64,000 nucleotides of DNA from assembly GCA_964536925.1 (NCBI GenBank), contig CAZHZF010000009.1:1724-65723 (forward strand), written 5' to 3'. The stretch comes from an uncultured Dehalococcoidales bacterium (GTDB lineage Bacteria; Chloroflexota; UBA6077; FW602-bin22). Position 1 is the first letter of the stretch; each line of letters begins with the position of its first letter. Shown piece after piece: positions 1,634-47,499 of this stretch. Under the pieces are notes generated by a model. That model searched no databases and was not told where the DNA came from. It saw nothing but the letters and a program-made list of their open reading frames with translations. Both the position numbers and the translations under genes were made by a program.

Positions 1634-2321
1634 GGGCGCGGGCTGGATGCGCTGGGATGTTCCCGTTGGCGACCCGAACTTCGGTCGGGCGTTCATGTGC
1701 GAGTGCCTCAGCAAGGATGTCGCGGTGCGTAACCTGGCCGGTCTGCGCCTGCGCTCGAACCTGGACGCCCTGCAGCACCTGACGTTCGAGACCTTCGACG
1801 CCACCATTCCGGGCGTCGCCGACGCGCTCGCCGCCGCGCGAGAGTTCATCACCGACACGCGTGGGTGGCTGGTGCTGTACGGCGGCTTCGGCGTGGGAAA
1901 GACGCACCTCGCCGCGGCGATCGCACATGCACTCGTCGAGCGCGGTACACCGATACTCTTCCAGGTCGTTCCGGTCCTGCTCACCGAGATGCGCGCGGCC
2001 TTCAATCCCGCAACCGATGTCGCACTGCGAGACCTGGTGAACTCCGTCATGCGCGTGCAGGTCCTGATCCTCGACGACTTCGGCGAGGAGTACGACACCC
2101 CCTGGGTGCGCGAGCAACTCTTTCTGTTGCTCAACCACCGTTACAACCATCGCCTGCCGACCGTGATCACGACGAATCGGCCGCTGGAAGCCATCGATCA
2201 GCGCATTTGCTCGCGCATGATGGACCGTTCGCTCTCCCGCACCGTGGCTGTTGGCGCGGCAGACTATCGCCAGCGTCCCCTCAGCGCCCGTCGCCCGACG
2301 CGAGGACGCTCCCCTCGCTGA
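1491..2321 (+). CDS. DnaC/DnaI-like AAA+ helicase loader (IstB-like ATPase) with N-terminal CxxCxGxG...CxC zinc motif
   Basis: C-terminal part of track ORF 450..2321. Motifs: 'CPICKGAGW...CEC', Walker A 'GGFGVGKTHLAAA', Walker B 'VLILDDFG', 'TTN' sensor. Only the last ~276 aa look like protein. The ATG 1491 start is uncertain and overlaps the DnaD-like gene. Confidence 0.75.
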   Translation: MFGESSSGGRRRGGGPLRLGQALPRLQPPAQPGGFRPTEEANICPICKGAGWMRWDVPVGDPNFGRAFMCECLSKDVAVRNLAGLRLRSNLDALQHLTFETFDATIPGVADALAAAREFITDTRGWLVLYGGFGVGKTHLAAAIAHALVERGTPILFQVVPVLLTEMRAAFNPATDVALRDLVNSVMRVQVLILDDFGEEYDTPWVREQLFLLLNHRYNHRLPTVITTNRPLEAIDQRICSRMMDRSLSRTVAVGAADYRQRPLSARRPTRGRSPR

Positions 2322-3090
2322 CGAGGCGGGTGTCCCCGTCGGGGAGGCGCACGAGAAGCGCGCCGGCTCGATCGACATCCTCGGCGACCCCGCGAAGAAG
2401 CGTTCCCCCGGGAACCTCGATGGTGACGAGCCGCCCGATCGTCACGAGGCGATCGCGCCAGTGTTGCTGCGTGCGCTCTGGCGCAGTGCGCCACTCCTCG
2501 ATTCTGTAGGAAAGGCTATCGAGCAGGCTCGCCGCGAGATGCGCCCGATCGACCCCAGAACTGCTGGCGAGCCGCAGACTGGTCGCCGGGAACGCGGCAC
2601 GCGCCGGCAGATCACTCAACTCCTGATGGACGTTGATGCCGATGCCGACAATCGCGCGGGCGTGCCCAAAATCCGTCTGGCGGTTCTCGACCAGAACGCC
2701 CGAGACCTTGCGCCCGCCCAGCAACACATCATTCGGCCACTTGAGCGTCGCGGCCAGACCAGTCACCTTCCAGATCGCGTCGCAGACGGCAAGCGCCGGG
2801 GCCGGGGCCAGCCCTGTCAGTGGGCCGTCACTCGCGACCATCAGGGAGAGGAGGATCGACGATCCAGGCGGCGCGACCCACGCGCGGCCACGGCGTCCTC
2901 GACCGGCGCGCTGCTCGTTGGCGAAGACAGCCACGCTTTCGCAGTCGAGCCGCCAGATGACATCGCTCGTTGACCCGACGCCGGCGAGGACCACCACGCG
3001 CCAGTGCGTCCGCAGATGGGATCGAATGCGCCGTGCATGAAAAGAGCCGAGGGAACCTTTCGGCTCCCCCGGCTCAGTGTTGCCGAGCAA
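2281..3090 (-). CDS. birA: Biotin--[acetyl-CoA-carboxylase] ligase, class I (no N-terminal HTH)
   Basis: 'GVGSTSD', 'ANEQRAGRGRRGR.W' (GRGRxGR biotin-binding loop) and 'LKWPNDVL..GRKVSGVL' are present. The only in-frame canonical start upstream of the conserved core is TTG 3090. Confidence 0.85.
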   Translation of the reverse strand: MLGNTEPGEPKGSLGSFHARRIRSHLRTHWRVVVLAGVGSTSDVIWRLDCESVAVFANEQRAGRGRRGRAWVAPPGSSILLSLMVASDGPLTGLAPAPALAVCDAIWKVTGLAATLKWPNDVLLGGRKVSGVLVENRQTDFGHARAIVGIGINVHQELSDLPARAAFPATSLRLASSSGVDRAHLAASLLDSLSYRIEEWRTAPERTQQHWRDRLVTIGRLVTIEVPGGTLLRGVAEDVDRAGALLVRLPDGDTRLVSEGSVLASGDGR

Positions 3091-3729: not shown

Positions 3730-5040
3730 ATGCAGGCTGGAGAGGCGGCGCCCGCCGAGGCTGAGGGCAGTTTCGGCAGCGTCCTCCGAAACCGGTCGTT
3801 CCTCGCGCTCTGGCTGGCGCAGGTCCTATCTCAGATCGCCGACAACATCGTCTACTTCACGTTGCTCGTTGAGGTCTATCGGCGAACCGAATCGAACGCG
3901 GCGGTCAGCGCGCTCGTGCTCGTCTTCACCGTGCCGGCCCTCACGTTCGGACTGCTGGCCGGGGTCCTGGTCGATCGAGTCGACAAGAGGCTCGTGCTGC
4001 TCGGGAGCAATCTCGGTCGAGCGTTGGTCGGTCTGGTGCTCGTTCTCGCACCGGGCTCCTTCGGCGCGCTTCTCGCACTCGGGTTCGTCGCTTCGATCTT
4101 CCGCCAGTTCTTCATGCCCGCCGAGGCCGCGGCTCTACCGCGTATCCTGCAGCCGAAAGACCTGCTGCCGGCCAACGCGCTATTCACGTTGACCTACAAC
4201 GCCTCGTTCATTGTGGGCTTCGCCGGCGCAGGTCCCCTGCTGAAGTTTGCCGGCACGGATAGCGCCTACTTGATTTCGACGATCCTCTTCGCGGCCGCCA
4301 CCGGGCTCTGCCTGGCACTGCCGATCATCGTCCCCGAGACGCAAAATGTGGTGCAGCGCACCACCGTCCGCGCGATCGGCTTGATCGCCCGAGAATTGCG
4401 GGAGGGGTGGGCGTTTCTACGTTCCAGCCGCGAGACAACGCGCACCATGCTTCAACTGGCATTCGCCTGGTCACTCTCGGGCATCACTGCCGCCGTCGCC
4501 CCAGGGTACGCATCCACCGTCCTCGGCCTGTCGGAGGAGGACGCCTTCTATCTGATCTTCCCGGCCGGGTGCGGCGTCATCCTCGGCTCGATCATGGTTG
4601 GCCGCTTCGGCCGTCACGCCCAACCGCACTTGCTGATCGCCGCGGGGTTCGTCGGTATCGGCCTCGCGACAATTCTGCTGTCGAGCTATCGCCGTATCCT
4701 CGACCTGCTGCTCGTGCAATTCCCGGCAGCCGGATCGATCGACCTGCATCCGGGCGGCCTCCCCGGCTTCCTCATCGTGGTGATGGGCCTCTCCGCCTGC
4801 CTCGGCCTCGCGAACGCAGCGACGGTGATCCCGGCGAACACCGCACTGCAGCGTGGGACGCCAGACGACCTCCGCGGCCGAGTCTTCTCGGTGCTCAACG
4901 CGCTGGGGAACACCGGGTCGACCGCGCCGATCCTGATCGTAGGCATCGCTGCAGACCTGATCGGCATGCGCTATCTGCTATTGGGGATCGGTATCACAGT
5001 GCTGGTCGTCGGGCTGGTCAGCCTACGGCGACCGCGTTGA
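3730..5040 (+). CDS. MFS transporter
   Basis: About 12 hydrophobic segments and the loop motif 'LLAGVLVDRVDKRLVLL'. 436 aa. Confidence 0.8.
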   Translation: MQAGEAAPAEAEGSFGSVLRNRSFLALWLAQVLSQIADNIVYFTLLVEVYRRTESNAAVSALVLVFTVPALTFGLLAGVLVDRVDKRLVLLGSNLGRALVGLVLVLAPGSFGALLALGFVASIFRQFFMPAEAAALPRILQPKDLLPANALFTLTYNASFIVGFAGAGPLLKFAGTDSAYLISTILFAAATGLCLALPIIVPETQNVVQRTTVRAIGLIARELREGWAFLRSSRETTRTMLQLAFAWSLSGITAAVAPGYASTVLGLSEEDAFYLIFPAGCGVILGSIMVGRFGRHAQPHLLIAAGFVGIGLATILLSSYRRILDLLLVQFPAAGSIDLHPGGLPGFLIVVMGLSACLGLANAATVIPANTALQRGTPDDLRGRVFSVLNALGNTGSTAPILIVGIAADLIGMRYLLLGIGITVLVVGLVSLRRPR

Positions 5041-5085
5041 CACACCTGTAAGGCGCACATACCATACCCGAGCCCTCCCCCGGCC

Positions 5086-6300
5086 ATGGTTGGCGCGAGG
5101 CGCGTGGAGCGACACCTGGATCTCTTCGACAAGATCGCACGGCTGACCAGGCCGCAGCAGGCACAGGCGGGCGGTTTCTATCCCTACTTCGTGCCGATCG
5201 ATTCGCCATCGGGTCCAGAGGTGATCATCGATGGCAAGCCAACGATCATGCTCGGGTCGAACAATTACCTGGGGCTCACGCAGCATCCACACGTCGTGGC
5301 TGCCGCGCATCGCGCGATCGACCGATACGGAACGGGATGCACCGGGTCGCGGCTTCTGAATGGAACGCTCACGCTCCACCAGGAACTCGAAACAAGGCTG
5401 GCGCGGTTCATGGGCACCGAGGCAGCCCTTGTCTTCACGACCGGGTTCCAGGTCAATCTCGGGGTGGTCTCCTCGCTCGTGGGGCGCAACGACGTTCTGA
5501 TCCTCGATCGATCCGATCATGCGAGCATCGTGGACGGCGCACGTCTGGCGTTCGGCCGCACGCTCCGATATCCACACAACGACATGGCGGTCCTCGAGCG
5601 GCTGCTGATCGAGCATCACGGGAAGTCGGGCATTCTGATCGTCGTGGACGGGGTCTTCTCCATGGAGGGGGACATCGCCCGACTGCCGGAGATCGTGCGG
5701 TTGGCGCGGAAGTACGGTGCCCGGGTGATGGTGGATGACGCCCACGGGGTTGGCGTCCTCGGCGCGGGCGGGCGCGGAACAGCCGAGCACTTCGGCCTCC
5801 AGGACCAGGTCGACCTGATCATGGGGACGTTCAGCAAGTCTTTCGCGTCCACGGGCGGTTTCATCGCCGGTACGGCCGAGGTGATCTATTTCATCAAGCA
5901 CAGCGCCCGGGCGTTTCTCTTCTCGGCCAGCATCCCGCCCGCCAGTGCCGCAGCCGCGCTGGCCGCGCTCGATGTGATCGAGACCGAGCCGGAGCGGCGT
6001 ACGACGCTCTGGGCGAACGCTCATCGCATGAAGGCGGAGCTCACGGGGATGGGGTTCGATACCGGCGTGAGCGAGACCCCGATCATCCCCATCGTCGTCG
6101 GCGAGGAGTTCCGACTCGCCCAGTTCTGGAAGTGCGTGTTCGAGAAGGGTGTGTTCGTGAACGCGGCGATCACGCCGGCCGTCGAACCTGGCCACGCTCT
6201 ACTGCGCACCAGCTATATGGCCACGCACCAGGATCATCACCTGGACCGCGCCCTGACTGTGTTCCGCGAGGCTGGCAGAGAGTTCGGGCTCATCTCCTGA
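5086..6300 (+). CDS. PLP-dependent alpha-oxoamine synthase, serine-palmitoyltransferase-like branch (BioF/Kbl not excluded)
   Basis: 'LGSNNYLGL', 'GSRLLNGT', 'DRSDHASIVDG', 'VDDAHGVG', PLP-lysine motif 'GTFSKSFAS', 'LLRTSYMATH'. Confidence 0.85.
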   Translation: MVGARRVERHLDLFDKIARLTRPQQAQAGGFYPYFVPIDSPSGPEVIIDGKPTIMLGSNNYLGLTQHPHVVAAAHRAIDRYGTGCTGSRLLNGTLTLHQELETRLARFMGTEAALVFTTGFQVNLGVVSSLVGRNDVLILDRSDHASIVDGARLAFGRTLRYPHNDMAVLERLLIEHHGKSGILIVVDGVFSMEGDIARLPEIVRLARKYGARVMVDDAHGVGVLGAGGRGTAEHFGLQDQVDLIMGTFSKSFASTGGFIAGTAEVIYFIKHSARAFLFSASIPPASAAAALAALDVIETEPERRTTLWANAHRMKAELTGMGFDTGVSETPIIPIVVGEEFRLAQFWKCVFEKGVFVNAAITPAVEPGHALLRTSYMATHQDHHLDRALTVFREAGREFGLIS

Positions 6301-6310
6301 GGGAGCCGAC

Positions 6311-7444
6311 GTGCGGGCGCTGATCCTCATGGCGGACACCGGCGGCGGCCATCGCGCCGTCAGCAGGGCTCTGGCCGACAGTCTCGCCCGACAGCACCGT
6401 GAGGGAGTCGCGGTCTCCATCGTCGATCCCCTCGCACGAACCCGTCGCGGCCTTGTGCGCCAGATCGCCGACCTCTACGGACCGGCGCAGAAGTACGGGC
6501 GCGCGATCTACGGCGCGGTCTTTCGTCTTACCGACTCAGTCGACACGTTCGCGCGCGTCCGAGACGCTCTCGGAGCACCCCTCATCGATACGATCGAGGA
6601 GATCCTCGCCGTCGAGAATCCCGATGTCGTGGTGTTCGCTCACTCTCTCGTCATCAGCCCCGGTCTGGATGCGATCGAGCGCCGGGCGCAGGCAGGGGCG
6701 CGCCGTGTTCGCGACGTCACGATGGTGACCGATCTGGCCACGATCCACGCCAGTTGGTACGACCCTCGCGTCGCCCTCTACTGTGCGCCCACCGATCCAG
6801 TCGCGCGAACCCTGCGTGGGTTCGGTGTGGCCGACGAACGGATCACTCTGACCGGTCTGCCTGTCAACCCGCGCTTCGGCTCGGTAGACACCGAGATACG
6901 CACCCTCCGCACCGCGCTGCGCTTGGTCGGGGACGCCCCGACCGCGCTCCTGATGACGGGGGGCGATGGCAGCGGCCCGGTCGTGCCGCTGGTGACCTCG
7001 CTGTCGCGGGCGCTGCCAGAACTCCAGTTGATCGTCGTCTGCGGACGTAACGAGCGCCTGCGGCGCACGCTCGAGAGCTTCTGCCTGCCACCCCTGGTGC
7101 GGATACTCGGCTTCGTCGACAACGTCCACGAGTTGATGCACGCGTCCGACTTCGTCATCTCCAAGGGTGGCCCTCAGAGCATCTGCGAGGCGCTCGCCTC
7201 CCACCGACCGGTGATCGTGACCGACCTACTCCCGGGCCAGGAGGCGGGAAACGCCGCATATGTGGTGCGGAGCGGGGCCGGATTCTATGCGCCGACGACG
7301 GGAGATGTCCTGACGGCCACCCGACGTCTGCTGTGGGATGATGCATTGCGCGCTCGCCTGAGCGCGGCGGCCGGGGCGGTCAGCTTTCGGGGCACAGCCG
7401 ACCGCGTCGCCAGCCTCATCGCCGGTCAGGCCGTCGCCGCCTGA
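6311..7444 (+). CDS. GT28 glycosyltransferase, MGDG-synthase/UgtP(YpfP)-like glycolipid synthase
   Basis: N-terminus 'ILMADTGGGHRAVSRAL'; C-terminal 'ILGFVDNVHELMHASDFVISKGGPQSICEALASHRPVIV...PGQEAGNA'. GTG start is preceded by GAGGGAG. Confidence 0.8.
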   Translation: MRALILMADTGGGHRAVSRALADSLARQHREGVAVSIVDPLARTRRGLVRQIADLYGPAQKYGRAIYGAVFRLTDSVDTFARVRDALGAPLIDTIEEILAVENPDVVVFAHSLVISPGLDAIERRAQAGARRVRDVTMVTDLATIHASWYDPRVALYCAPTDPVARTLRGFGVADERITLTGLPVNPRFGSVDTEIRTLRTALRLVGDAPTALLMTGGDGSGPVVPLVTSLSRALPELQLIVVCGRNERLRRTLESFCLPPLVRILGFVDNVHELMHASDFVISKGGPQSICEALASHRPVIVTDLLPGQEAGNAAYVVRSGAGFYAPTTGDVLTATRRLLWDDALRARLSAAAGAVSFRGTADRVASLIAGQAVAA

Positions 7445-7447
7445 GCC

Positions 7448-8419
7448 GTGCGGGCACTTGTCACCGGCGCCACGGGGTTCATCGGATCGCACCTGGTGGA
7501 CCGTCTCTGTGCGGACGGGTGGAACGTCACCTGTCTGACCAGAGGCTCAACTGGCGGTTGGCTCCGACCGCACGACGTGCGGATCGTTCGCACGGCGTTC
7601 GATGACGTTGGGCGCCTTGCCCACGAGGTGTCGGGTTGTGAACTGGTCTTCCACGTCGCGGGTGCGATCAAGGCGCTGACCTGGGATGACTATCGGCGTG
7701 GCAATGTAGAGGCAACGCGCCACCTGGTCGACGCGTGCCGCTCCGCGGAGCGCCGTCCGGGGCGGCTCGTCATCGTCTCGAGCCAGGCCGCGGGTGGCAC
7801 CGGCACACCGGCGCGCCCGCGTCGAGAGGACGACCCGGATGCGCCGACCTCTGCCTACGGCCGAAGCAAGCTCCTCGCGGAACAGATTGCTCGCGATGCG
7901 ACGGATCTGGATGTCGTCGTCGTGCGGCCTTCGACGGTCTTCGGTCCGCGCGATCCGGCACTCCGGCCCTTCTTTCGGCTCGCCTCGCGCGGAGTCGTGC
8001 CACGCCCTCTCGCCGACCCGATCGTATCGGTCATCTACGTGGCGGACCTCGTGGAGTGTCTGGTCGCCGCCTCGAGCGTGCCCACCGCGCGGGGCCGCGT
8101 GTACCACGCCGCGAATCGGGATCCCGTGAGCTTTCGCGACCTGGGCCGAGCGATCGCCTCGGCGTACGGCGTCCGCGCCCTCGAAATCCCCGTGCCCGAC
8201 CCACTCCTACTGGGCGCCGGCTTTGTTTCGGGTGCGATCGGACGCATCACGGGGAGAGCGCGACCGTTCGACCTCGCCAAGGCGCGGGAGATTCTCCAAT
8301 CGGCGTGGGTCGCCGATACCTCACGCGCGTCGTCGGAGTTGGGCTTCACACCGCGGACGCCATACAGCGAAGGCCTCACGATCACCGCGAACTGGTATCG
8401 ATCGCAGGGGTGGCTCTAG
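7448..8419 (+). CDS. NAD-dependent epimerase/dehydratase family (extended SDR) oxidoreductase
   Basis: 'MRALVTGATGFIGSHLV', 'SS.A', 'YGRSK' (YxxxK). GTG lies 3 nt after the upstream TGA. Confidence 0.85.
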   Translation: MRALVTGATGFIGSHLVDRLCADGWNVTCLTRGSTGGWLRPHDVRIVRTAFDDVGRLAHEVSGCELVFHVAGAIKALTWDDYRRGNVEATRHLVDACRSAERRPGRLVIVSSQAAGGTGTPARPRREDDPDAPTSAYGRSKLLAEQIARDATDLDVVVVRPSTVFGPRDPALRPFFRLASRGVVPRPLADPIVSVIYVADLVECLVAASSVPTARGRVYHAANRDPVSFRDLGRAIASAYGVRALEIPVPDPLLLGAGFVSGAIGRITGRARPFDLAKAREILQSAWVADTSRASSELGFTPRTPYSEGLTITANWYRSQGWL

Positions 8420-8444
8420 CGTCAGTCCGGTGTCTCCGCGGCGA

Positions 8445-9215
8445 TCAGATGTTGCTGCGTGACTGGCCACCATCGACGTTGATGCAGGCGCCGGTCACCA
8501 GGCTCGCTCGATCGGAACAGAGGAACGTCACCACGCTGGCGATCTCCTCCGGCGTACCGAACCGCCCCATCGGCAGATCGGCCGCGATGAAGCGACGCAT
8601 CGCCTCCGGGTCCGCGTCGATGCGTCGCTGCCACGATCCTCCGGGAAAGACTATCGACCCGGGGGCAACCGCGTTGACCCGCACGCCGTGCGGCGCCAAC
8701 TGGCGAGCCATCTGTTTCGCCGTGGCGAGTTCGGCGGCCTTCACCGCGTTGTAGGTGATGGGCCCTCCCGATTCACGGCCGTAGATCGAAGAGATGAACA
8801 CAATCGCGCCGCGACGACGGGCGATCATCTCTGGCACCACCGCACGCGAAGCCCTGACCGCCGGGGTCAGGTTGAGCGCGAAGACCGTCTCCCAATCCGC
8901 ATCCGTAGCCTCCCAGGTCGTTGCACCGCGGCTCCCGCCCACGTTGTTGACGAGAATATCGATCGGTCCGTGCGCGCTCCTCGTCGCATCGATGACGCCC
9001 TGGACTCCCTCCGCGCTGGTCAGGTCGGCGACGACGCCGAGGACTTTGCCTCCGTCGGAACGGATCTCCTTCACCGCCGCATCGACATCCTCGCCATTGC
9101 GGGCGCAGACGGTCACCCGGCACTTCTCGCGCGCCAGTTCCCGCGCAATCGCTCGGCCGATCCCGCGGCTGGACCCGGTGACGACCGCGACACGATCGGT
9201 CAGCCCGAGATCCAC
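8445..9215 (-). CDS. Classical SDR oxidoreductase (FabG-like)
   Basis: 'VAVVTGSSRGIGRAIA', 'NNVG', 'SSIYG...YNAVKAA' (YxxxK), 'PGSIVFPG'. I prefer GTG 9215 (256 aa) over the track start at 9395. Confidence 0.85.
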   Translation of the reverse strand: MDLGLTDRVAVVTGSSRGIGRAIARELAREKCRVTVCARNGEDVDAAVKEIRSDGGKVLGVVADLTSAEGVQGVIDATRSAHGPIDILVNNVGGSRGATTWEATDADWETVFALNLTPAVRASRAVVPEMIARRRGAIVFISSIYGRESGGPITYNAVKAAELATAKQMARQLAPHGVRVNAVAPGSIVFPGGSWQRRIDADPEAMRRFIAADLPMGRFGTPEEIASVVTFLCSDRASLVTGACINVDGGQSRSNI

Positions 9216-9216: not shown

Positions 9217-9609
9217 TCAGTCCCCTTCCCGGCCGCGGCGACGATCAGGTGGGCCGGGGAAGCGGCGACCGGGCGGTGGTCCGCCGGGGCGCCAACCGGG
9301 GCGCGAGAAACTCCGGCCCTCCCTGTCGGGGGGCGCCCCCCAGGGGGCGCGCGGAGGCGGGCGGGGCGGACGTGGCCGCTCCTCCATCTCTTCAACGCTC
9401 GGGCGTGCCGGAGGCGGCGCGGGTGGCGGCCCCAGCCAGTAGGTCACGACGAAGAATCCATCATTGTCGATCGCAATCGACGACACCTGATCCGGCCTCA
9501 GGTTGAGACGATTCAGATGCTCCTCAAGGCGGTCACTTGTCTCGAACAGACGCACCTGCCAGCGGCGCTCGCGCGTCGCCCGACGACCAGAGTCCTCAGC
9601 TTCGTTCAC
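9217..9609 (-). CDS. Hypothetical protein: ~60-aa folded-looking N-domain plus ~70-aa Pro/Arg/Gly-rich tail
   Basis: GTG 9609. The stop TGA 9219-9217 is separated by 1 nt from the SDR GTG (TGAGGTG). My manual count gives GC3 of ~72-75% in both halves. No family recognised. Confidence 0.5.
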   Translation of the reverse strand: MNEAEDSGRRATRERRWQVRLFETSDRLEEHLNRLNLRPDQVSSIAIDNDGFFVVTYWLGPPPAPPPARPSVEEMEERPRPPRPPPRAPWGAPPDREGRSFSRPGWRPGGPPPGRRFPGPPDRRRGREGD

Positions 9610-9711: not shown

Positions 9712-12210
9712 TTGGAGACGTCATCCAGGAATTCGGGACGACGTGAAACCGCGGAACCAGCCGACCTGCCGGACGAGCGCCCTTCCTCTGGTGGCTGGGG
9801 CCTGTTCCTCGTCACCGGGCTCGTCACGTTCTGCCTCGGCCTCCTCCTGATCGCCGTCTTTGGGATCACTCTTGCCCTGATCGGCGCACGATCTCTCGAC
9901 GGCGTAGGTGGGATCATCGACGCCGTCACGCGTGATCTGCCGCCACCCGAGGCGGCGGTGTCACGCGACGTCTTCAAGAGCTCCTTCATCTACGACCGCA
10001 ATGGTGAAGTCCTCTACGAGATCTTCGATCCAAATGGCGGCCGCAGGACGGTCATTCCAATCTCGGAGATCCCGCAGCACCTGGTCGCGGCGACGCTCGC
10101 CACCGAGGACGCGAACTTCTACCAGAATCCCGGCTTCGATCTCCGGGCCATGGTGCGCGCGGTCTGGCAGAACTTCCGCGGTCAGTCGGTGCTCTCCGGC
10201 GCCAGCACGATCACGCAGCAGCTTGTGAAGAACGCCCTGTTCGATCCAGAGGAGCGGGTCGAGCAGTCCTTTGAACGAAAAGCGAAAGAGATTGTCCTCG
10301 CCTACAAGCTCTCGCAGATGTACTCGAAGGATCAGATCCTCGAGCGCTACCTGAACGAGATCAACTACGGCAACCTCGCCTACGGGATCGAGGCAGCTGC
10401 CCGGACCTACTTCGACAAGCCAGCGCGTTCGCTCGACCTGGCCGAGGCAAGCCTTCTCGCCGGCCTGCCCCAGTTGCCCTCGGCCTACAACCCCTTCGTC
10501 AATCTGCGAGCCGCCAAGGAGCGTCAGGCGGAGGTCCTTGGCCTCATGGTGCGTCAGGGATACATCTCCGAGGAGATCGCCGAGGCGGCCCTTCGCCAGG
10601 AGTTGAAGTTCGCCCGGCTGCGCACGGACATCGAGGCTCCGCACTTCGTGATGTACGTGCGGGACATCCTGGAGCGCCGGTTCGGCGTGGCGCGGCTGTA
10701 CTCCGGTGGGTTCCGCGTATTCACCACTCTGGACCTGAACGCGCAGCGCGCCGCCGAGGAGGTGGCCCGATCCCACGTCGCTCGCATTCGCGATCACGAT
10801 GTGGGCAACGCCGCGATCGTGGCGATCAACCCGAACAGTGGCGAGGTGCTGGCGATGGTGGGGAGTGTCGATTACTTCGACAACGCCATCGCCGGCCAGG
10901 TCAACATGGCAAACTCGCTCCGTCAGCCGGGGTCGACACTCAAGCCCTTCACCTATGCAGCGGCGATCGCGCGCGGGACGCACTCCCCGGGGACCATCAT
11001 TCGTGATGAGCCCACGACCTTCCGCGGTGCGGCCGGCGAGCCGTACATCCCCCAGAATCCGGATGGTCGTTTCCGCGGACCGGTCACGCTCCGCTATGCG
11101 CTGGCGAACTCGCTGAACATCCCGGCGCTCAGAGTCGTCAGCGACGTGACGCCGCAGGCAATGATCGACCTGGCGCGTCGGATGGGGATCACGTCCCTTG
11201 GCGACGCGCGGCAATACGGCCTCACCGTCACGCTGGGGAGCGGCGAGGTACGACTGCTGGACCTGACCTATGCGTACACCCCTTTTGCGAACGGCGGATT
11301 CCAGATCGGCCAGCCGGTGGTCGATCCTCGGCCCGGAAGCCGCGAGTTTGAGCCGGCCGTGATTCTCAAGGTCGTCGACGCCGAAGGGCGCGTCCTTGAG
11401 GAGTACAGCCCGCGCCCCGGTAAGCGCGTGATCACTCCGCAGGTGGCCTGGCTCATCAGCGACATCCTCAGCGACGACGAGGCTAGATCGGACACCTACG
11501 GCAGGAACAGCCCGCTGGCGATCGGGCGGCCCGCCGCGGTCAAGACCGGGACCACCGATCGATACCACGATAGCTGGACGATCGGCTACACCCCGGATCT
11601 GGTCGTCGGCGTGTGGGTGGGCAATGCCGACAACAAACCGATGCGGCAGGTTCTCGGCGTTTCCGGCGCCGGTGCCATCTGGAACGGGACAATCCAGCAA
11701 CTTCTCAAGAACACTGCGCCGCGACCCTTTATCCGGCCCGCGGGCCTCGTGCAGGTCGCTATCGATCCACGCACCGGGCTGCGTCCGGCCGCGAACGGGC
11801 CGTCGCGCCTGGAATGGTTTCTCGAAGGTAACGTGCCCACCCAGTGGACCGAGATCCTGCGGTCTCCCACCGCCACAGTCTCCGCTTCGCGGCCGCCGAC
11901 TCCCGTACCGACGGCCACGCCACGTCCCACACCACCCGTGGCGAGGCCGGTGGAACCATCACCCACTCCGGTCGATCCGAACATCGCGACCGTACCGTCG
12001 GTCGTGGGCATGCCCGAGGCTGCCGCCCGGCGGGCGATAGAGCAGGCGGGGCTCAACAATACTTACACAAACTATCAATCCTCCGCGGATGTCGCGGATC
12101 AAGCCTACTTCGCGCGCTTCAGCGCCGGGCAGGTGGTGAGCCAGACGCCTCAGCCGGGTGCGCGCGCCCCGCGCGGCACCACTGTCTTCATCGCTGTCAA
12201 GCGGGGCTAA
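9712..12210 (+). CDS. Class A penicillin-binding protein (PBP1A-type transglycosylase/transpeptidase) with C-terminal PASTA-like domain
   Basis: GT51 motifs 'EDANFYQNPGFD', 'GASTITQQLVKN', 'RKAKEIVLAYKLS'. Transpeptidase motifs 'STLKPF', 'SLN', 'KTGTT'. A P/T-rich linker is followed by 'VPSVVGMPEAAARRAIEQAGL...'. TTG start with an N-terminal TM segment. Confidence 0.9.
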   Translation: METSSRNSGRRETAEPADLPDERPSSGGWGLFLVTGLVTFCLGLLLIAVFGITLALIGARSLDGVGGIIDAVTRDLPPPEAAVSRDVFKSSFIYDRNGEVLYEIFDPNGGRRTVIPISEIPQHLVAATLATEDANFYQNPGFDLRAMVRAVWQNFRGQSVLSGASTITQQLVKNALFDPEERVEQSFERKAKEIVLAYKLSQMYSKDQILERYLNEINYGNLAYGIEAAARTYFDKPARSLDLAEASLLAGLPQLPSAYNPFVNLRAAKERQAEVLGLMVRQGYISEEIAEAALRQELKFARLRTDIEAPHFVMYVRDILERRFGVARLYSGGFRVFTTLDLNAQRAAEEVARSHVARIRDHDVGNAAIVAINPNSGEVLAMVGSVDYFDNAIAGQVNMANSLRQPGSTLKPFTYAAAIARGTHSPGTIIRDEPTTFRGAAGEPYIPQNPDGRFRGPVTLRYALANSLNIPALRVVSDVTPQAMIDLARRMGITSLGDARQYGLTVTLGSGEVRLLDLTYAYTPFANGGFQIGQPVVDPRPGSREFEPAVILKVVDAEGRVLEEYSPRPGKRVITPQVAWLISDILSDDEARSDTYGRNSPLAIGRPAAVKTGTTDRYHDSWTIGYTPDLVVGVWVGNADNKPMRQVLGVSGAGAIWNGTIQQLLKNTAPRPFIRPAGLVQVAIDPRTGLRPAANGPSRLEWFLEGNVPTQWTEILRSPTATVSASRPPTPVPTATPRPTPPVARPVEPSPTPVDPNIATVPSVVGMPEAAARRAIEQAGLNNTYTNYQSSADVADQAYFARFSAGQVVSQTPQPGARAPRGTTVFIAVKRG

Positions 12211-13015: not shown

Positions 13016-13735
13016 TCAGACCGCTGCGGCGCGCGTCACGGCATCGGAGAGTGCGAACCGACCTTCATACAGCGCCCGACCCACGATGACGCCCTCGACG
13101 CCGGTCGCTGCCAGGCGATTGAGGTCTTCCAGGCTAGACACGCCACCGGATGCGATCACGGGCACCGCGACCTCACGCACCAGTTCCGCGATCGCGGCGA
13201 TATTAGGGCCCTCGAGCGCGCCGTCTCGGGCGATATCGGTATAGAAGAGGCGACGGACGCCATCGGACACCAGCCGGCGGGCGAGATCAAGCGCGAGAGC
13301 CGATGAGGTAGCGGTCCAGCCGTCAGTCGCGACCCGCCCGTCACGCGCGTCGATCCCGACGATGACCCGCTCGGGCCAGAGCCGCGCCGCTTCTGCCACC
13401 GTGTGGGGTTGGCGTACGGCGAGCGTTCCGAAGGCGACACGGTCGACTCCGAGGTCGATGAGTTCCCGCGCGCGGTCGAGCGAGCGTATACCGCCGCCTA
13501 CCTGCAGACAGACACCGGGAATGCGTACAAGCCGACTGAGGGCCGAGCGATTATCCGGGCCAGACCCTCGCGCCGCGTCGAGATCGACCACGTGGATCCT
13601 TCGCGCGCCCCCTTCCATCCAGCGGCGCGCAACGCTCTCGGGATCGTGATCGAAGATCGTCTCGCGATCGAAATCTCCCTGAACGAGACGAACTACACGC
13701 CCGTCGCGCAGATCGATGGCCGGGATGACCTCCAC
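13016..13735 (-). CDS. hisA: ProFAR isomerase
   Basis: '[15 protein letters not shown]', 'QVGGGIRS', 'VIASGGVSS'. It lies 2 nt upstream of hisF. Confidence 0.9.
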
Positions 13736-13825
13736 GAGCGATCGACTATAAGGCTCCTGACCAGGGTCGCTCCTCGGAACACCCGGCGAGACGATAACAT
13801 CACACCGAAAGGCCCGAGAGGCGAC

Positions 13826-15049
13826 GTGGCACTCCGCAATATCGACTTCGACGCCCTGAGATCACTGCGCGATCGGCACGGCGCGGCCTTTCCGCGCGGT
13901 CGGATCCTGTTCCGCGAGGGGGACACCAGCGCGGAGTTCTACGTGATCCTTCAAGGGTCGGTAGAGCTTTCCATCAAGGACAAGGCCACGGGAAACAAGA
14001 CCGTCCTGCACGTCGCTCAGGCCGGTGCGTTCTTTGGCGAGATGTCGTGCTTCAGTGGGCTCCCTCGTTCGGCCACGGCCACCGCAGCCGAGGACTCCGT
14101 GCTGCTTTTCTTCAACCAGGACACCGCGATCCAGCTGCTGCGGGCCAGTCCTCGCTTCGCGCTCGGTGTCATCCAGACCCTCTGCGATCGCATTCGTGCC
14201 GCGAACGAGCGGATCGCCACTCTTGCCGACTCGGCGGGCGGCACTTCGCCCCCGGTCACCGCGCCTCCGTCCGGTCCACGGGCGATGCCGGCCGGCCTCG
14301 CCCAGACTGCCGCCGCCGCGGCGCGCGCCGCGCGGCCTCAGGAGGCCCGCGAGATCCCGGCCGCTGACTACGATCGCGCGACCCTCTGGGCCAAGACTGT
14401 CGAGTGTCCCGTCAGCAGAACTCGGTTCGGCGCGCTCAACGTCCGGCCCGACGTGCTGTCGGTCAAGAGTCGTGATACGGATTTCCGGGAGGTCTACGGC
14501 GGACCGAATCCGCTCTGGTACCTCGTGTACGTCTGTCCGGAGTGCCGGTACGCGGCGTACCCGGACGACTTTGCCGGACCATCCGCTGACGAGATCGAGC
14601 GCCTGCGCAATTCCACGTCCGAACGCGGGGTGATCGGTGGCTCGTGCGATTTCGCGGGAGCCAGGGGTCTCGCGGATGGAGTGACGGCATATCAACTCGC
14701 CATCGCCTCGTATGCGATGCGCGCGGAGAATCCCCAGCGGCTCGGCGGTCTCTACCACCGCCTGGCGTGGCTGCACCGTGAGGCCGGCGACGCCGACGCC
14801 GAGATGGCGGCACTGCGTCAGGCGGTCGCGGAATACACGCGCGCTGCCAGCGCCTCGTCACCCGCGGATATGACACTCCTTTACACCATCGGCGAACTAC
14901 ACCTTCGGCTCGGCGACCCGTCGAACGCGATCCGATTTTTCGCGCAGACGAGTCAGCACCCGGACTTCAAACGCCAGCCCGACATCCAGCGGCTCTGCCG
15001 GGATCGGTGGACCGCCGCTCGCGCGGCACCGCGCCCGAGTGCGAGCTAA
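13826..15049 (+). CDS. Cyclic-nucleotide-binding domain fused to a DUF2225-like zinc-ribbon/TPR-like domain
   Basis: cNMP motifs 'FREGDTSAEFYVILQGSV...FFGEMS...RSATA'; then 'CPVSRTRF...DTDFREVYGGPNPLWYLVYVCPECRYAAYPDDF'. GTG 13826 is preceded by GAAAGG..GAGAGG. The track ORF start at 13403 runs antisense through hisA. Confidence 0.75.
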   Translation: MALRNIDFDALRSLRDRHGAAFPRGRILFREGDTSAEFYVILQGSVELSIKDKATGNKTVLHVAQAGAFFGEMSCFSGLPRSATATAAEDSVLLFFNQDTAIQLLRASPRFALGVIQTLCDRIRAANERIATLADSAGGTSPPVTAPPSGPRAMPAGLAQTAAAAARAARPQEAREIPAADYDRATLWAKTVECPVSRTRFGALNVRPDVLSVKSRDTDFREVYGGPNPLWYLVYVCPECRYAAYPDDFAGPSADEIERLRNSTSERGVIGGSCDFAGARGLADGVTAYQLAIASYAMRAENPQRLGGLYHRLAWLHREAGDADAEMAALRQAVAEYTRAASASSPADMTLLYTIGELHLRLGDPSNAIRFFAQTSQHPDFKRQPDIQRLCRDRWTAARAAPRPSAS

Positions 15050-37243: not shown

Positions 37244-39154
37244 GTGGGATCCATCGAACCGATCCGCTCCATCGGCGAAGTGCCGGACGAGCCGACCGAT
37301 CCGTACCGGCGCCGCCTGCTGACTTTCGGAGCGATTGGAGCGGCCGCCTCGCTGGCGGTGCTCGGGCGCCTTGGCTTCGTCCAGTTACTCGGTTCGGATG
37401 TCTATCGGGCGGAAGCCGAACAGAATCGGACGTCCGAGCAGGCGCTTCCCGCCGATCGCGGATTGATCGTCGATCGGAACGAACTCCCTCTGGCGCGCAA
37501 TCAGGCGGCGTTCGATATCGGGGTGGTCCCGGCGAATCTCCCCACGCGAGAGGCGGAGATAGCGGCGGTGTTCGAGTACCTGGGGACAGTCCTGGGCCTG
37601 AACCCCGCGGACCTCCGTGCCGCGTTCATCAATCGCAAGCAGGCGAACCCGTTCTCCTTCGTTCCGGTCGTGCGAGCTCAGTCACCCGAGGTCGCGCACC
37701 GCATTCAAGAGCACCTGCCGCGCTTGCCGGGAGTCGATGTCCGTGCACGTGCCCGGCGGGAGTACGTCGATCCGCTCGTGACAGCACACGTCACCGGCTA
37801 TGTGGGACCTGTTACTACGGAGGAACTCGGGGCGGCCCGTGATGCGGCGGGCGCGCGATACGACCTCGACGACACCATCGGCAAGATGGGCGTGGAATAC
37901 ACCAGGGAATGGGACCTGCGCGGACTGTCCGGCGTACGTCGGACGGAGGTTGACGTCGAGGGGCGATTCAAACGGCTCATCGGCGAGGAGCCGTCACGGG
38001 CAGGTCGCACCGTCCGGGTGACGATCGATTTGCCTTTCCAGCGCGAGGTTACGCGGCTGCTTCAGCAAGGGATCGCCGCCCACGAGGCCGCGAGCGTGGT
38101 CGCGCTCGACCCGCGTAATGGCGACGTGATCGCCATGGTCCATCTTCCATCGTTCGATCCGAACACTCTCGTCGTCGGATTGAGCGATGCGGAGTTCGAC
38201 CATCTGCAACGTACCGGTGATGTCTTCCTGAATGGTGCCATCACCTCGGCCTATTCTCCGGGGTCCTTATTCAAGGTGGTGACCGCGATCGCGGGGTTGC
38301 ACGAAGCCGTGATCCAGGACAACGCCCAACTTGACTGTCAGGGTGAACTCGTCTTTCCGTCGCGGCTCACCCCTGGTGGGGCGGCTCGGTTTCCGTGCTG
38401 GGCGAGGCATGGCACGCAGGATTGCGCCAGTGCACTGGCGAACTCGTGCAACACGTTCTTCTACCAGGTCGGGGCGGGGGATCCCCGTGGGGATTGGAAC
38501 GGCCTGGGGATCGAGCGACTTGCCCGGTGGGCGCGCGCCTTGGGGCTCGGGACACCCACCGGCATCGATCTCCCCGGCGAAGTGGCGGGCCTCGTGCCCG
38601 ATCCGGAATGGAAGCGCCGCGAGCGGCGGGAGGACTGGTTCAAAGGGGACTCATACAACGTGGCTATCGGCCAGGGCTTCGTCACGGTCACTCCCCTTCA
38701 GGCCGCCAATCTGATCGCAACCGTGGCGAACGGCGGTCGCGTTCTGCGGCCGCGCATCGTGCGCGACGTGCACGATCACGGCACAACCGCGCCAGGTCAG
38801 CGCCGACCTGTGGTCATTCGTGACCTGGGACTCGACCCGGCACACCTCCAGATCGTTCGCGCGGGTCTGCATGCATCGATGCGTCTCGGCCGCTCGCCGT
38901 TGGGCTCACCTATCGCCGGCACGGCATGGCGCTCGGGGTTGCGCGATCTCCCCGTTGCGGGGAAGACGGGCACCGCCGAATGGGTGACATCCGCGGGAGA
39001 GCGCCGGACCCACGGGTGGTTCGCGGGTTGGGCGCCCTTCGATGATCCGCAGCTCGCCGTTGCGGTCTTCCTAAGGAATGGCCCCGGGGGGACCGAAGCG
39101 GCGCGGCTCGCACGGGACATGTTCGCGTTCTACTTCGGCGTGGCGGAGGCCTGA
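37244..39154 (+). CDS. mrdA: Penicillin-binding protein 2 (elongation-specific class B transpeptidase)
   Basis: N-terminal TM, 'SLFKVVT' (SxxK), 'SCN' (SxN), 'KTGTAE' (KTG). Confidence 0.9.
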   Translation: MGSIEPIRSIGEVPDEPTDPYRRRLLTFGAIGAAASLAVLGRLGFVQLLGSDVYRAEAEQNRTSEQALPADRGLIVDRNELPLARNQAAFDIGVVPANLPTREAEIAAVFEYLGTVLGLNPADLRAAFINRKQANPFSFVPVVRAQSPEVAHRIQEHLPRLPGVDVRARARREYVDPLVTAHVTGYVGPVTTEELGAARDAAGARYDLDDTIGKMGVEYTREWDLRGLSGVRRTEVDVEGRFKRLIGEEPSRAGRTVRVTIDLPFQREVTRLLQQGIAAHEAASVVALDPRNGDVIAMVHLPSFDPNTLVVGLSDAEFDHLQRTGDVFLNGAITSAYSPGSLFKVVTAIAGLHEAVIQDNAQLDCQGELVFPSRLTPGGAARFPCWARHGTQDCASALANSCNTFFYQVGAGDPRGDWNGLGIERLARWARALGLGTPTGIDLPGEVAGLVPDPEWKRRERREDWFKGDSYNVAIGQGFVTVTPLQAANLIATVANGGRVLRPRIVRDVHDHGTTAPGQRRPVVIRDLGLDPAHLQIVRAGLHASMRLGRSPLGSPIAGTAWRSGLRDLPVAGKTGTAEWVTSAGERRTHGWFAGWAPFDDPQLAVAVFLRNGPGGTEAARLARDMFAFYFGVAEA

Positions 39155-39156
39155 CT

Positions 39157-40263
39157 CTGGAGACTCGAGCGTGGCGTCACTTCGACTATCCGCTGATCAT
39201 CGGAACATTCGCCCTGTTAGGCCTCGGTGTCGTGATGATCTTCAGCGCGACGCAATCCTCCGCCGATGGCATCCGTGTGACACCTCTGGTGATTCGCCAT
39301 CTGGTCTACCTGGCGATAGGAACGGGTTTTCTCTTTCTCTTCGCGTTCACTGACTATCGCGGCCTAGCGTCGCTCGCCTACCCGATGTACGGCATAGGGC
39401 TCCTGGCCCTCATCATCGTGCTGATTCTTGGTCGAATGGAGCATGGATCCACACGCTGGATCAACCTCTTCGATCTGATCCAGATTCAGCCGTCGGAGCC
39501 GGCCAAGCTCGCAACAGTCCTGGCGCTGGCCCGGTTCTTCTCGACCCACCGGGAGTCGATCCATCGTCCACGCACCGTTGCGCTCTCGCTGGTGCTCGTC
39601 GCCGTGCCCGCGTTGCTCGTGGTGGTGGAACCGGACCTGGGAACCTCACTGGTGTACTTCGCGATCTGGGCCGGGGTCGCCTTCATTGCCGGCGTTCCGC
39701 TGTGCTACTTCCTCATCCTCGGCGTCGCCGCGGTTGGCCTGGCACGACTCATCTGGCCGCTGGCGCCGAGATACATGCAGGATCGCCTCACCATCTTCCT
39801 GGATCCCGAAGCTGATCCGACGGGACAGGGGTACAACATCATCCAGGCCGCGATCTCGGTCGGATCGGGAGGGCTGTTCGGTCGAGGATTCCTCAGCGGC
39901 ACCCAGAGCCAACTCGAGTTCCTGCGCGTTCGCTACGCCGACTTCATCTTCTCGGTCCTTGCCGAGGAACTCGGATTCATTGGCGCCGGAATCCTGTTCG
40001 TTCTCGTGACGATTGTCGTCCTGCGCGGCCTTCGGGCAGCGGCGATCGCATCGGAGCCTTTCGGTCGCCTGATCACCGTGGGCGTCGTCAGTATGCTGCT
40101 GTTTCAGTTTGTCGTGAACGTCGGCATGAACGTTCGGCTCCTGCCGGTCACCGGCATTCCGCTGCCTTTCATCAGTTACGGGGGCAGCTCCCTGATCACG
40201 TTCCTGGCCGGGATCGGATTGGTGCAGAGCATTACCATGCGCCACCAGAAACTCGAGTTCTGA
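39157..40263 (+). CDS. rodA: SEDS glycosyltransferase RodA (proposed CTG start)
   Basis: 'RWINLFDLIQIQPSEPAKL', 'GLFGRGFLSGTQSQLEFL..RYADFIFSVLAEELGF', 'TGIPLPFISYGGSS'. The conserved TM1 'WRHFDYPLIIGTFALLGLGVVMIFSAT' lies upstream of the track start at 39232. GGAGG 39145-39149 sits 7 nt before CTG 39157. Confidence 0.85.
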   Translation: METRAWRHFDYPLIIGTFALLGLGVVMIFSATQSSADGIRVTPLVIRHLVYLAIGTGFLFLFAFTDYRGLASLAYPMYGIGLLALIIVLILGRMEHGSTRWINLFDLIQIQPSEPAKLATVLALARFFSTHRESIHRPRTVALSLVLVAVPALLVVVEPDLGTSLVYFAIWAGVAFIAGVPLCYFLILGVAAVGLARLIWPLAPRYMQDRLTIFLDPEADPTGQGYNIIQAAISVGSGGLFGRGFLSGTQSQLEFLRVRYADFIFSVLAEELGFIGAGILFVLVTIVVLRGLRAAAIASEPFGRLITVGVVSMLLFQFVVNVGMNVRLLPVTGIPLPFISYGGSSLITFLAGIGLVQSITMRHQKLEF

Positions 40264-43190: not shown

Positions 43191-43919
43191 TTGATCGGCG
43201 CGGGTCGCAAAGTGCATCCGGCGCGCGGCGCCATCCACCTCCCCCCGTGGCGCCATCGTCGAGAGATCGTCTCCCTCAATGAGGCGGATGTCGACCTTCG
43301 CGATACGCGCGCCGTCGACGACCTGGTCGTCGCAGCCAGTGATGCGGGCGCGGAACTCGTGGTGTTTTCGACAGCCGTACGGGCCGCTGGAGAGCCCCTC
43401 AGCGCCGCCGGATTCGCCCCGATCGAAGAGATCCTCGAACTGGAGCGACCATCCGACGGACTCATCCGCGGCGACATAGTGCCGACCGTCGCGGTTGAGA
43501 CCTTCTTGAACGACCTCGTTCGACTCGATCATGCCTGTTTCCCCTGGCTCTGGTGGAACAGTCCTGAGGAGATGGCGCGTTACGTCCAGAGCCCCGACGC
43601 GCTTGCCTGGCTCACGGGACCGATCGACGGGACACTCGCCGTGGACGCCTACATCGCAGTGACGCGGTCCGGAACCACCGGGTATATCGATCGCCTCGCC
43701 GTGGCTCCCGCGCGCCGCGGCCGGGGCCTGGGCGCGGCACTGACCCTTCACGCGATCGATCATCTCGCGCGATCGGGTGCCCGCCGCATCGCGCTGACGA
43801 CACAGCACGATAACGTTCGGGCCCAGAATCTGTATTCCCGCCTCGGATTTCGCCCCAATGGTTTCCGCCTCACGATCTGGGGACGCTGGATCGGTCAACC
43901 GCGCGATAGGACGCCCTGA
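43191..43919 (+). CDS. GNAT-family N-acetyltransferase
   Basis: 'YIDRLAVAPARRGRGLGAALTLHAI' (Q/RxxGxG/A acetyl-CoA motif), 'NVRAQNLYSRLGF'. Start uncertain (TTG 43191). Confidence 0.75.
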   Translation: MIGAGRKVHPARGAIHLPPWRHRREIVSLNEADVDLRDTRAVDDLVVAASDAGAELVVFSTAVRAAGEPLSAAGFAPIEEILELERPSDGLIRGDIVPTVAVETFLNDLVRLDHACFPWLWWNSPEEMARYVQSPDALAWLTGPIDGTLAVDAYIAVTRSGTTGYIDRLAVAPARRGRGLGAALTLHAIDHLARSGARRIALTTQHDNVRAQNLYSRLGFRPNGFRLTIWGRWIGQPRDRTP

Positions 43920-46743: not shown

Positions 46744-47499
46744 TCAGGCCCGAAACGCCCAGACCACCAGTCGATGGCTGTAATCGCTCGTCAGCGGGTT
46801 GAAGACCCCCGTACAGGTGATCAGTGTGAGCTCCTCCCGGGCGGCATCACGCGTCACGGAGAGATCGTCCCGCGGTACGACGTTCCGGCCCGCCACGACG
46901 TACTGGATCTCCCCGAGATCCGTGCCAAGCGAGATATGTTCGCCATCCTGCAAGTCCTCGAGCCGCGCGAAGACGTTGCCGCTGGTCAAACTCTGCACGT
47001 GACCGGAGAGCACCACGTTACCTCCGGTGCCCGGCAGAGCCGTCCCCTGCAGGTGCCCGGCGACGAAGCGCGGTACAACCCACTCACCGTTCTCGATCCG
47101 AGAGGGGACCACCGGTGCCTCGAGGCCGATCGATGGCGCGCGAATGCGCAGGATCTCCCGTACGGAACGGACGGTAGGCGTCGCGCCGGCAGCGGGACGC
47201 GGCGGAGTGACAGCAGGCAGGGCAGGAGCGGCGGCGATCGCGGGGACCGACTGTGTCGTCACCGGCGTGCCTGTCGCGACGGGCTCCGCTCGCGACGCCT
47301 CCCGTGTCGAGACGGCCGCAGCGACCGCGGTGTGCACTACCGCCAGGGTTGCCGTCGCGGCGATTCGCGCGTCTCGTCGCTCCAACTCGCGGAGCGCCTC
47401 GGTCTGTTCGATCTCGGTCCTGCCCCAGATCAGCGCCGTCAGGAGAAGCGCCAGCAGTCCGACCGCTGTAAGGACATTACCGACTCGCTTCCGGTCCAC
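46744..47499 (-). CDS. Sortase-family transpeptidase
   Basis: N-terminal TM, A/P/T-rich linker, 'VLSGHV' (His), 'LTLITC' (TLxTC Cys), 'HRLVV' (Arg). Confidence 0.8.
   Translation of the reverse strand: MDRKRVGNVLTAVGLLALLLTALIWGRTEIEQTEALRELERRDARIAATATLAVVHTAVAAAVSTREASRAEPVATGTPVTTQSVPAIAAAPALPAVTPPRPAAGATPTVRSVREILRIRAPSIGLEAPVVPSRIENGEWVVPRFVAGHLQGTALPGTGGNVVLSGHVQSLTSGNVFARLEDLQDGEHISLGTDLGEIQYVVAGRNVVPRDDLSVTRDAAREELTLITCTGVFNPLTSDYSHRLVVWAFRA

Follow-up and report, generated by a model that had tools for sequence, protein, structure and literature searches.

Bacterial sphingolipids have long been held to be restricted to a few Gram-negative groups. The ceramide core pathway, which is comprised of serine palmitoyltransferase (Spt, also SPT), a bacterial ceramide synthase of the GNAT type (bCerS), and the reductase CerR, was reportedly described in Caulobacter and Bacteroides by Stankeviciute et al. 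in 2022 and Olea-Ozuna et al. in 2021. The present analysis concerns a 64-kb stretch of DNA from an uncultured Chloroflexota bacterium (the whole stretch is called the window below), in which genes for an Spt-like alpha-oxoamine synthase (AOS), a glycosyltransferase of family 28 (GT28), and an extended short-chain dehydrogenase/reductase (eSDR) follow one another on the plus strand. On balance, the region 5086-8419 would represent a self-contained cassette for the synthesis of a glycosylated (beta-hexosyl) sphingoid lipid.

Metagenomics predicts sphingolipids in many phyla, including Chloroflexota, which abound in anoxic waters and sediments. Spt-like genes were reported in 218 Chloroflexota metagenome-assembled genomes (MAGs), and ceramides and glycosyl-ceramides (Gly-Cer) correlate with Anaerolineae in the Black Sea (Ding, von Meijenfeldt et al. 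2024, ISME J, PMC11334938). A follow-up study of 2025 likewise predicts sphingolipid synthesis in Chloroflexota and correlates Gly-Cer with Anaerolineae (PMC12619533). As far as predictions go, the first-pass annotation of this DNA is therefore out of date in stating that Chloroflexota lack a description of such lipids. The "clade B" of Spt-like proteins from Chloroflexota MAGs (Ding et al. 2024) has the phylum and the sphingolipid prediction in common with the window, but the word "glycosyltransferase" is absent from the main text of that paper, and a cassette lacking bCerS was not found there. Within the literature searched, the embedded GT28, the strict coupling of GT28 to Spt in these genomes, and the recurrent loss of GNAT from the cassette appear to be new. 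The first-pass annotation also mentioned the long-chain diols of Thermomicrobia; no connection between the product of an Spt-type enzyme and a 1,2-diol was found, and none of the relatives retrieved bears a Thermomicrobia label.

Compared with the Spt/bCerS/CerR core, the window likewise pairs an Spt-like enzyme with a reductase of the NAD(P)-dependent epimerase/dehydratase family, and orthologous clusters in other phyla add a GNAT of ~370 aa (a likeness by description, not to the Caulobacter sequences themselves). The window differs in lacking GNAT, AcpR, and AasR, and in the GT28 gene embedded in the operon. Anoxic waters and sediments build up ceramides and glycosyl-ceramides from unknown sources, and for the glycosylated part of these lipids the cassette would provide a genetic explanation. 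With three genes and a putative promoter of its own, it is compact and directly clonable.

Gene Layout

The features of the locus are listed in Table 1. The four plus-strand genes described in the first-pass annotation, separated by gaps of 45, 10, and 3 nt, were reproduced in the list of open reading frames (ORFs) with the same coordinates and gaps. The GAGGGAG motif noted before GTG 6311 is located at 6299-6305, 5 nt ahead of this start, and overlaps the AOS stop codon, and the third junction, given as TGA-N3-GTG, reads TGA-GCC-GTG at 7442-7450.

Table 1. Genes and promoter-like element of the locus, with positions in the window
Feature	Position	Strand	Description
Major facilitator superfamily (MFS) transporter, DHA3/LplT-like	3730-5040	+	436 aa; MFS_1 (E-value 1e-30), MFS_3; membership of the cassette uncertain
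Promoter-like element before the AOS gene	5037-5065	+	TTGACA-N17-TACCAT; 10/12 consensus positions
AOS, Spt-like, pyridoxal phosphate (PLP)-dependent	5086-6300	+	404 aa; Aminotran_1_2 (2e-54); NF047600
GT28, MGDG-synthase/UgtP-like inverting lipid glycosyltransferase	6311-7444	+	377 aa; MGDG_synth + Glyco_tran_28_C
eSDR, putative 3-keto reductase, CerR-like role	7448-8419	+	323 aa; Epimerase (2e-31) + 3Beta_HSD
FabG-like classical SDR, convergent; possible alternative keto-reductase	core 8445-9215, ORF end at 8445	-	256 aa; adh_short (7e-52) + adh_short_C2

Assignment of the Oxoamine Synthase

The first-pass annotation had read the AOS as closer to SPT than to BioF or Kbl, and the present comparisons of profile hidden Markov models (HMMs), PDB matches, and active-site residues bear this out. 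They place the AOS as an SPT-like oxoamine synthase, neither BioF nor Kbl, although it stays below the NCBI equivalog cut-off. In the HMM placement (Table 2), the Bacteroidota-type SPT model leads by 119 bits over the next family, and the BioF and Kbl models remain under their own cut-offs. Ten other proteins of the family, from five phyla and including MAG proteins of Chloroflexota, Nitrospirota, Bacteroidota, and Myxococcota, rank the models in the same way.

Table 2. Scores of the AOS protein against NCBIfam models and PDB entries
Collection	Model or entry	AOS score (bits)	Cut-off (bits)	Remark
NCBIfam	NF047600 SerpalmtaseCFB (Bacteroidota-type SPT)	535	640	
NCBIfam	TIGR01825	416	535	
NCBIfam	Beta-proteobacterial SPT	404	500	
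NCBIfam	Kbl	397	460	
NCBIfam	BioF	390	426	
NCBIfam	ALAS	252	339	
NCBIfam	CqsA	223	428	
PDB	Sphingobacterium multivorum SPT (8GUH/3A2B)	416		Best match; ungapped over 379 residues
PDB	Thermus BioF/Kbl	312		
PDB	Sphingomonas SPTs	about 300		
PDB	Escherichia coli Kbl	273		
PDB	Cysteate acyltransferase	262		
PDB	Escherichia coli BioF	209		

The three motifs quoted in the first-pass annotation (GSRLLNGT, GTFSKSFAS, and LLRTSYMATH) are all present in the translation and align with GSRFLNGT, GTFSKSLAS, and LIRFSLMATH of the S. multivorum enzyme (SmSPT). Seventeen SmSPT residues have been named for the PLP/serine site and the Gly80-Asn85 loop (Ikushiro et al., PMC10196870), and 15 of these are identical in the AOS; the exceptions are Phe83Leu and Met271Leu, the contact of SmSPT Met271 being made via its main chain (PMC10196870). 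The catalytic residues His138, Asp210, and His213 and the PLP-lysine Lys244 correspond to H145, D217, H220, and K251 of the AOS, while the serine pocket and loop (Asn52, Gly80, Ser81, Leu84, Asn85, Ser185, Thr241, and Ser243) are identical throughout; AOS proteins at 37-44% identity deviate at positions 80, 81, 84, 85, and 243. A neighbor-joining (NJ) tree, without support values and with uncharacterized AOS proteins as outgroups, puts SmSPT within the same clade as the window AOS. Like the S. multivorum enzyme (3A2B, 8GUH; NF047600), the AOS is soluble and stands alone, and no gene for a dedicated acyl carrier protein (ACP) is located nearby. It differs in coming from a Chloroflexota genome with cell-wall genes of the monoderm type (a sortase and a penicillin-binding protein (PBP), the latter PASTA-bearing in relatives).

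With regard to the start codon, translation may begin at GTG 5104 instead of ATG 5086. A Shine-Dalgarno-like GAGG precedes this GTG by a few nucleotides, and the gene calls in relatives give proteins of 394-398 aa. The exact 398-aa product of the GTG 5104 start has no entry in the protein collection.

SPT-like AOS genes (49-52% identity) were also observed on two archaeal-binned contigs, one from an uncultured archaeon MAG (L032, 8001-9179; loci retrieved in this work carry L numbers) and one from a Kariarchaeota MAG (L031, 107-1282). The former carries the full SmSPT residue set. Archaeal Spt-like genes numbered zero in the Black Sea survey of Ding et al. (PMC11334938), and the two genes could reflect a binning error or horizontal transfer.

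Conservation of the Cassette

The closest relative of the window is a Chloroflexi MAG contig (L001, VGOZ01000064), whose AOS is 96% identical and whose gene order is kept from DnaB to PBP. The AOS is 80% identical in L043 and 77% in both L055 and L056. The four-gene arrangement is not due to chance: its order is kept in L001, L055, and L056, and in L043 apart from the missing eSDR. The arrangements of all GT28-bearing cassettes are given in Table 3.

Table 3. Arrangements of the GT28-bearing cassettes
Arrangement	Loci
MFS-AOS-GT28-eSDR	Window, L001, L055, L056
MFS-AOS-GT28	L043
AOS-GT28-eSDR	L051, L057
AOS-GT28	L050 (closed 3.7-Mb genome; ENA ERZ26694896 ctg118005)
AOS-GNAT-GT28-eSDR	L002, L053, L059
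AOS-GNAT-GT28	L064

The GT28 gene lies downstream of the AOS gene, either directly or with one GNAT gene between them, in every one of these 12 cassettes, the window included. Every taxon label present among them is Chloroflexota, several being unlabeled metagenome contigs, and GT28 is absent from all non-Chloroflexota loci of the AOS scan. Seven further AOS and GT28 database matches come from contigs of equal size.

The proteins of the syntenic block differ in their conservation. Between the window and L055/L056, identity is 77% for the AOS, 73-77% for the FabG-like SDR, 69-75% for the PBP, and 64-65% for the MFS protein, compared with 49-56% for GT28 and 45-53% for the eSDR. Within this one block, the tailoring enzymes (GT28 and eSDR) diverge far more rapidly than the Spt-like enzyme does.

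The GT28 Glycosyltransferase

Both domains of the GT28 protein are recognized well above their Pfam cut-offs (MGDG_synth, 63.3 bits against 25; Glyco_tran_28_C, 42.4 bits against 22). Its best PDB match is the monogalactosyldiacylglycerol (MGDG) synthase MGD1 from Arabidopsis (4WYI, 142 bits), followed by UgtP (79 bits). The two-domain architecture, the TGGGH motif with the catalytic His, and the GQEAGN donor motif are common to the window GT28, plant MGD1, and UgtP (YpfP) of Bacillus and Staphylococcus, the motifs being kept in the alignment to 4WYI. The top NCBIfam match is a diglucosyl-diacylglycerol synthase, and the score against the UgtP equivalog PRK13609 (151 bits) lies well below its cut-off of 500. 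MGD1 and UgtP act on diacylglycerol (DAG), whereas the gene for the window GT28 is embedded in a putative sphingoid-base operon. The cassette points to this MGDG-synthase-type enzyme as a candidate bacterial sphingolipid glycosyltransferase. The literature searched yielded no text supporting acceptance of ceramide by YpfP.

Several glycosyltransferases are known to act on sphingolipids in bacteria, such as Sgt1 and Sgt2 of Caulobacter and the glycosphingolipid synthases AgcT of Bacteroides fragilis (BF9343_3149) and ZMO1957 of Zymomonas; the role of the last two, attachment of the first sugar, is the one proposed here for GT28. AgcT is a retaining enzyme of family GT4 that forms an alpha linkage (bioRxiv 10.1101/2023.05.23.541633). 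GT28, in contrast, is inverting and would yield a beta-hexoside, as in eukaryotic glucosylceramide.

The Extended SDR and the FabG-Like SDR

The eSDR carries the motifs GATGFIGS and YGRSK. Its top NCBIfam matches, HpnA (126 bits) and OleD (85-93 bits), are below threshold, and the GalE model scores 58 bits. OleD is a lipid 3-keto reductase. The AOS-linked SDRs across phyla share one NCBIfam profile, in which HpnA is followed by OleD, SdmB, and LegB, and GalE is weak. The eSDR is considered a putative 3-keto reductase of a sphingoid or ceramide intermediate with a CerR-like role. In the window protein, the Rossmann motif (MRALVTGATGFIGSH) stands at the very start of the sequence; CerR, in contrast, is reportedly a periplasmic protein (PMC11087976).

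The first-pass annotation had suggested that the convergent FabG-like SDR could be a second reductase. This is a possibility only: the gene is a conserved neighbor in the close clade, directly after the cassette in L001, L043, L055, and L056, and no other SDR remains next to the L043 cassette, but its sequence is generic and its PDB matches are restricted to generic ones (FabG and sorbose reductase). Classical SDRs are the group to which known 3-ketosphinganine reductases belong (PMC9278070).

GNAT and the Putative Ceramide Core in Related Loci

In about 20 Nitrospirota loci, an eSDR with 29-37% identity to that of the window is encoded immediately upstream of the AOS, and a GNAT of ~370 aa follows directly after the AOS in at least 12 of them. 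The same GNAT occurs near AOS genes in MAGs of Cyclobacteriaceae, Flammeovirgaceae, Puia, and Desulfobacterales, and its family comprises more than 8000 database matches. A metagenome scan seeded with this GNAT retrieved 80 loci, 55 of which have room upstream; AOS is found in 40 of the 55 and lies directly upstream in 28. The eSDR family is represented in 42 of the 80 loci, eSDR-GNAT pairs included, and GT28 in one. Compared by description, the eSDR-AOS-GNAT triad matches the clustering of Spt, bCerS, and CerR genes in published work (PMC11334938; PMC11324152).

The first-pass annotation had stated that the window holds no bacterial ceramide synthase homologue; in line with this, a tblastn search with the AOS-linked GNAT, a candidate bacterial ceramide synthase (query L002, 9209-10330), gave no match in the 64 kb at E <= 10. 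GNAT is present in the sister cassettes L002, L053, L059, and L064, and the GNAT-less ones are the window, L001, L043, L050, L051, L055, L056, and L057. An unlinked acyltransferase is plausible, because at least nine GNAT loci with several kilobases of flanking sequence have no AOS, and because Bacteroides keeps its sphingolipid core genes apart (PMC11334938).

Some other genes were observed beside these cores and in the window. The only GNAT-fold gene recognized in the window is a small Acetyltransf_1 gene (43191-43919), which does not belong to the ~370-aa AOS-linked family; its end shares base 43919 with the start of a GT4/GT5-like gene (pair 43191-45148), and the pair is 35 kb away from the cassette. 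Elsewhere, the eSDR-AOS(-GNAT) core is accompanied by different accessory genes: for an ACP, a ketoacyl synthase, and a Wzx-like flippase in Candidatus Magnetobacterium (L022, 3068-6238), and for a LolA-like protein, a MacB-type ABC transporter, and an outer-membrane factor in L060 (8255-15173). These accessories are possible modules for precursor supply and export.

Promoter-Like Element and the MFS Gene

A sigma-70-like element of the form TTGACA-N17-TAnnAT lies in the 45-nt gap between the MFS and AOS genes, overlapping the MFS stop codon; its distance to the AOS ATG is 21 nt. The same element precedes the AOS gene in L001 (6797), L043 (7902), L055 (1965), and L056 (4716), with spacers that differ. 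Because the element is conserved in five genomes despite these differing spacers, the AOS-GT28-eSDR unit probably has its own promoter, and the position suggests a very short leader.

The MFS protein is best matched by models of the DHA3/EntS/LplT type, i.e., TIGR00900 (139 bits), the LplT domain of LplT-Aas fusions (84 bits), and LplT (54 bits), all far under their cut-offs. The gene is syntenic only in the close clade (L001, L043, L055, and L056) and is absent from L002, L050, L051, L053, and L057. The first-pass annotation had likened the locus to the YpfP-LtaA pair of glycolipid synthase and flippase. It is true that GT28 and MFS genes share one neighborhood in Staphylococcus aureus ypfP-ltaA, as they do in the window. 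However, the window MFS gene is not beside GT28 but upstream of the AOS, beyond the conserved promoter-like element, is confined to one shallow clade, and is missing from most cassettes; a search of the protein against the PDB, in which a structure of LtaA is deposited, gave no match at E <= 0.01. The analogy is therefore weak. The upstream MFS gene and the downstream FabG-like SDR gene are conserved neighbors whose participation is unproven. The first-pass proposal that the module condenses, reduces, glycosylates, and flips is partly supported: the AOS is evolutionarily coupled to GT28 and to the eSDR, and the link to the MFS protein is weak.

Proposed Pathway

In the first step of the proposed pathway, the Spt-like PLP enzyme, which is placed in its family by the comparisons above, would condense L-serine with a long-chain acyl-CoA to yield 3-ketosphinganine. 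No dedicated gene for an ACP or an acyl-ACP synthetase is located nearby, and the enzyme is of the Bacteroidota type, which uses acyl-CoA. The eSDR would then reduce the 3-keto group of the free base, or of an N-acylated oxo-ceramide, with NAD(P)H. Finally, GT28, as an inverting GT-B transferase, would transfer a beta-hexose from a UDP-sugar to the C1 hydroxyl. If N-acylation is encoded elsewhere in the genome, the product would be a hexosyl-dihydroceramide; if it is missing, a free-amine hexosyl-sphinganine would result.

A bolder version, which we regard as rather unlikely, is that the GNAT-less Spt-GT28-eSDR cassettes make free-amine beta-hexosyl-sphinganine, a psychosine-like lyso-glycosphingolipid, as the true end product of a monoderm, and that the LplT-like MFS protein, the relatives of which flip single-chain lysolipids, moves this lipid across the membrane. 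If this were true, it would define a class of bacterial sphingolipids without an N-acyl chain, originating from a GT28 that switched its acceptor from diacylglycerol to a sphingoid base. The GNAT-bearing and GNAT-less cassettes form a natural experiment on the need for N-acylation and on the sequence in which bacteria acylate, reduce, and glycosylate these lipids.

Alternative Explanations

Several observations weigh against a dedicated cassette for a glycosylated sphingoid lipid. The AOS does not attain the NF047600 cut-off (535 against 640 bits); this cut-off is reached by none of the ten relatives scanned, two Bacteroidota MAG proteins included, whose scores range from 520 to 600 bits. Cassettes L043 and L050 have no eSDR, and the AOS-linked GNAT gave no match in the window, as described above. 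The closest characterized relatives of GT28, MGD1 and UgtP, glycosylate diacylglycerol. In addition, a GT28 from a Dehalococcoidia locus without a neighboring AOS (L058, 41% identity) matches several AOS-linked enzymes in similarity and nests among them in an NJ tree without support values; because of this equal similarity and nesting, there is no cleanly separate "sphingolipid GT28" clade. These last points suit an explanation in which a sphingoid lipid is produced by Spt and the reductase alone, GT28 being an ordinary DAG glycosyltransferase of the MGDG/DGDG (digalactosyldiacylglycerol) type, which does not act on the sphingoid product and is co-located and co-regulated with Spt and the reductase in a unit for membrane-lipid remodeling, e.g., toward phosphorus-free lipids. 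The diglucosyl-DAG synthase model as top NCBIfam match and the DAG acceptors of both best characterized relatives speak for it as well. This explanation deserves consideration but is unlikely, given that the GT28 gene sits inside the pathway operon, between AOS or GNAT and eSDR, with junctions of 3-10 nt or overlapping in 12 of 12 cassettes although GT28 identity falls to 36%; gene order this tight is rarely maintained by co-regulation alone.

The other two alternatives concern the enzymes on either side of GT28. The eSDR could be a UDP-hexose 4-epimerase-type enzyme that supplies the donor for GT28, keto reduction being left to the FabG-like SDR or another enzyme. In favor of this are its place in the Pfam Epimerase family, PDB matches that are led by sugar-nucleotide epimerases (at most 73 bits), and the position of its gene directly after that of GT28. 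Moreover, the reductases BT_0972, TSC10, and FVT1 belong to the classical SDRs (PMC9278070), as does the product of the convergent FabG-like gene. Nevertheless, the same SDR subfamily is tied to AOS or GNAT without any GT28 in the Nitrospirota and GNAT loci described above, and GalE scores lower than HpnA and OleD, which renders a donor-supplying role improbable. Even less credit can be given to the idea that the AOS is the BioF or Kbl of the organism, serving biotin or threonine metabolism among unrelated neighbors. A biotin ligase gene, BirA (2281-3090, minus strand), does lie 2 kb upstream of the AOS, and many homologous database entries are auto-named "8-amino-7-oxononanoate synthase". Against this stand the BioF and Kbl scores below cut-off, compared with the lead of the SPT model (Table 2), and the SPT-type GSR[FL]LN loop with Ser243. 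Moreover, no bioA, bioB, bioD, or tdh was recognized within the window, and the BirA adjacency is found only in the close syntenic clade, being absent in L002, L050, L051, L053, and L057. The HMM scores, the active-site loop, and the gene neighborhood together led to the rejection of a BioF/Kbl identity.

Genomic Surroundings

The G+C content is 62-70% across the whole window, and scans of the window for tRNA genes and Rfam families returned zero matches. Its GT28, eSDR, HisF, and ferredoxin proteins have records on an NCBI contig of 71,912 bp. With regard to the cell envelope, the window encodes a sortase (46744-47499), a class A PBP (9712-12210) whose counterparts in L055 and L056 are PASTA-bearing, and, judged by eye from the ORF list, probably a PBP2-RodA pair (37244-40263); these genes fit a peptidoglycan-containing envelope of the monoderm type. 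Between the FabG-like SDR and PBP genes, there is a small ORF with no Pfam match, which occupies 9217-9609 on the minus strand in the window (130 aa) and 6121-6444 in L055 (107 aa). Further downstream, the gene at 13730-15049, which adjoins hisA and hisF, combines a cyclic-nucleotide-binding domain, DUF2225, and TPR repeats in one protein.

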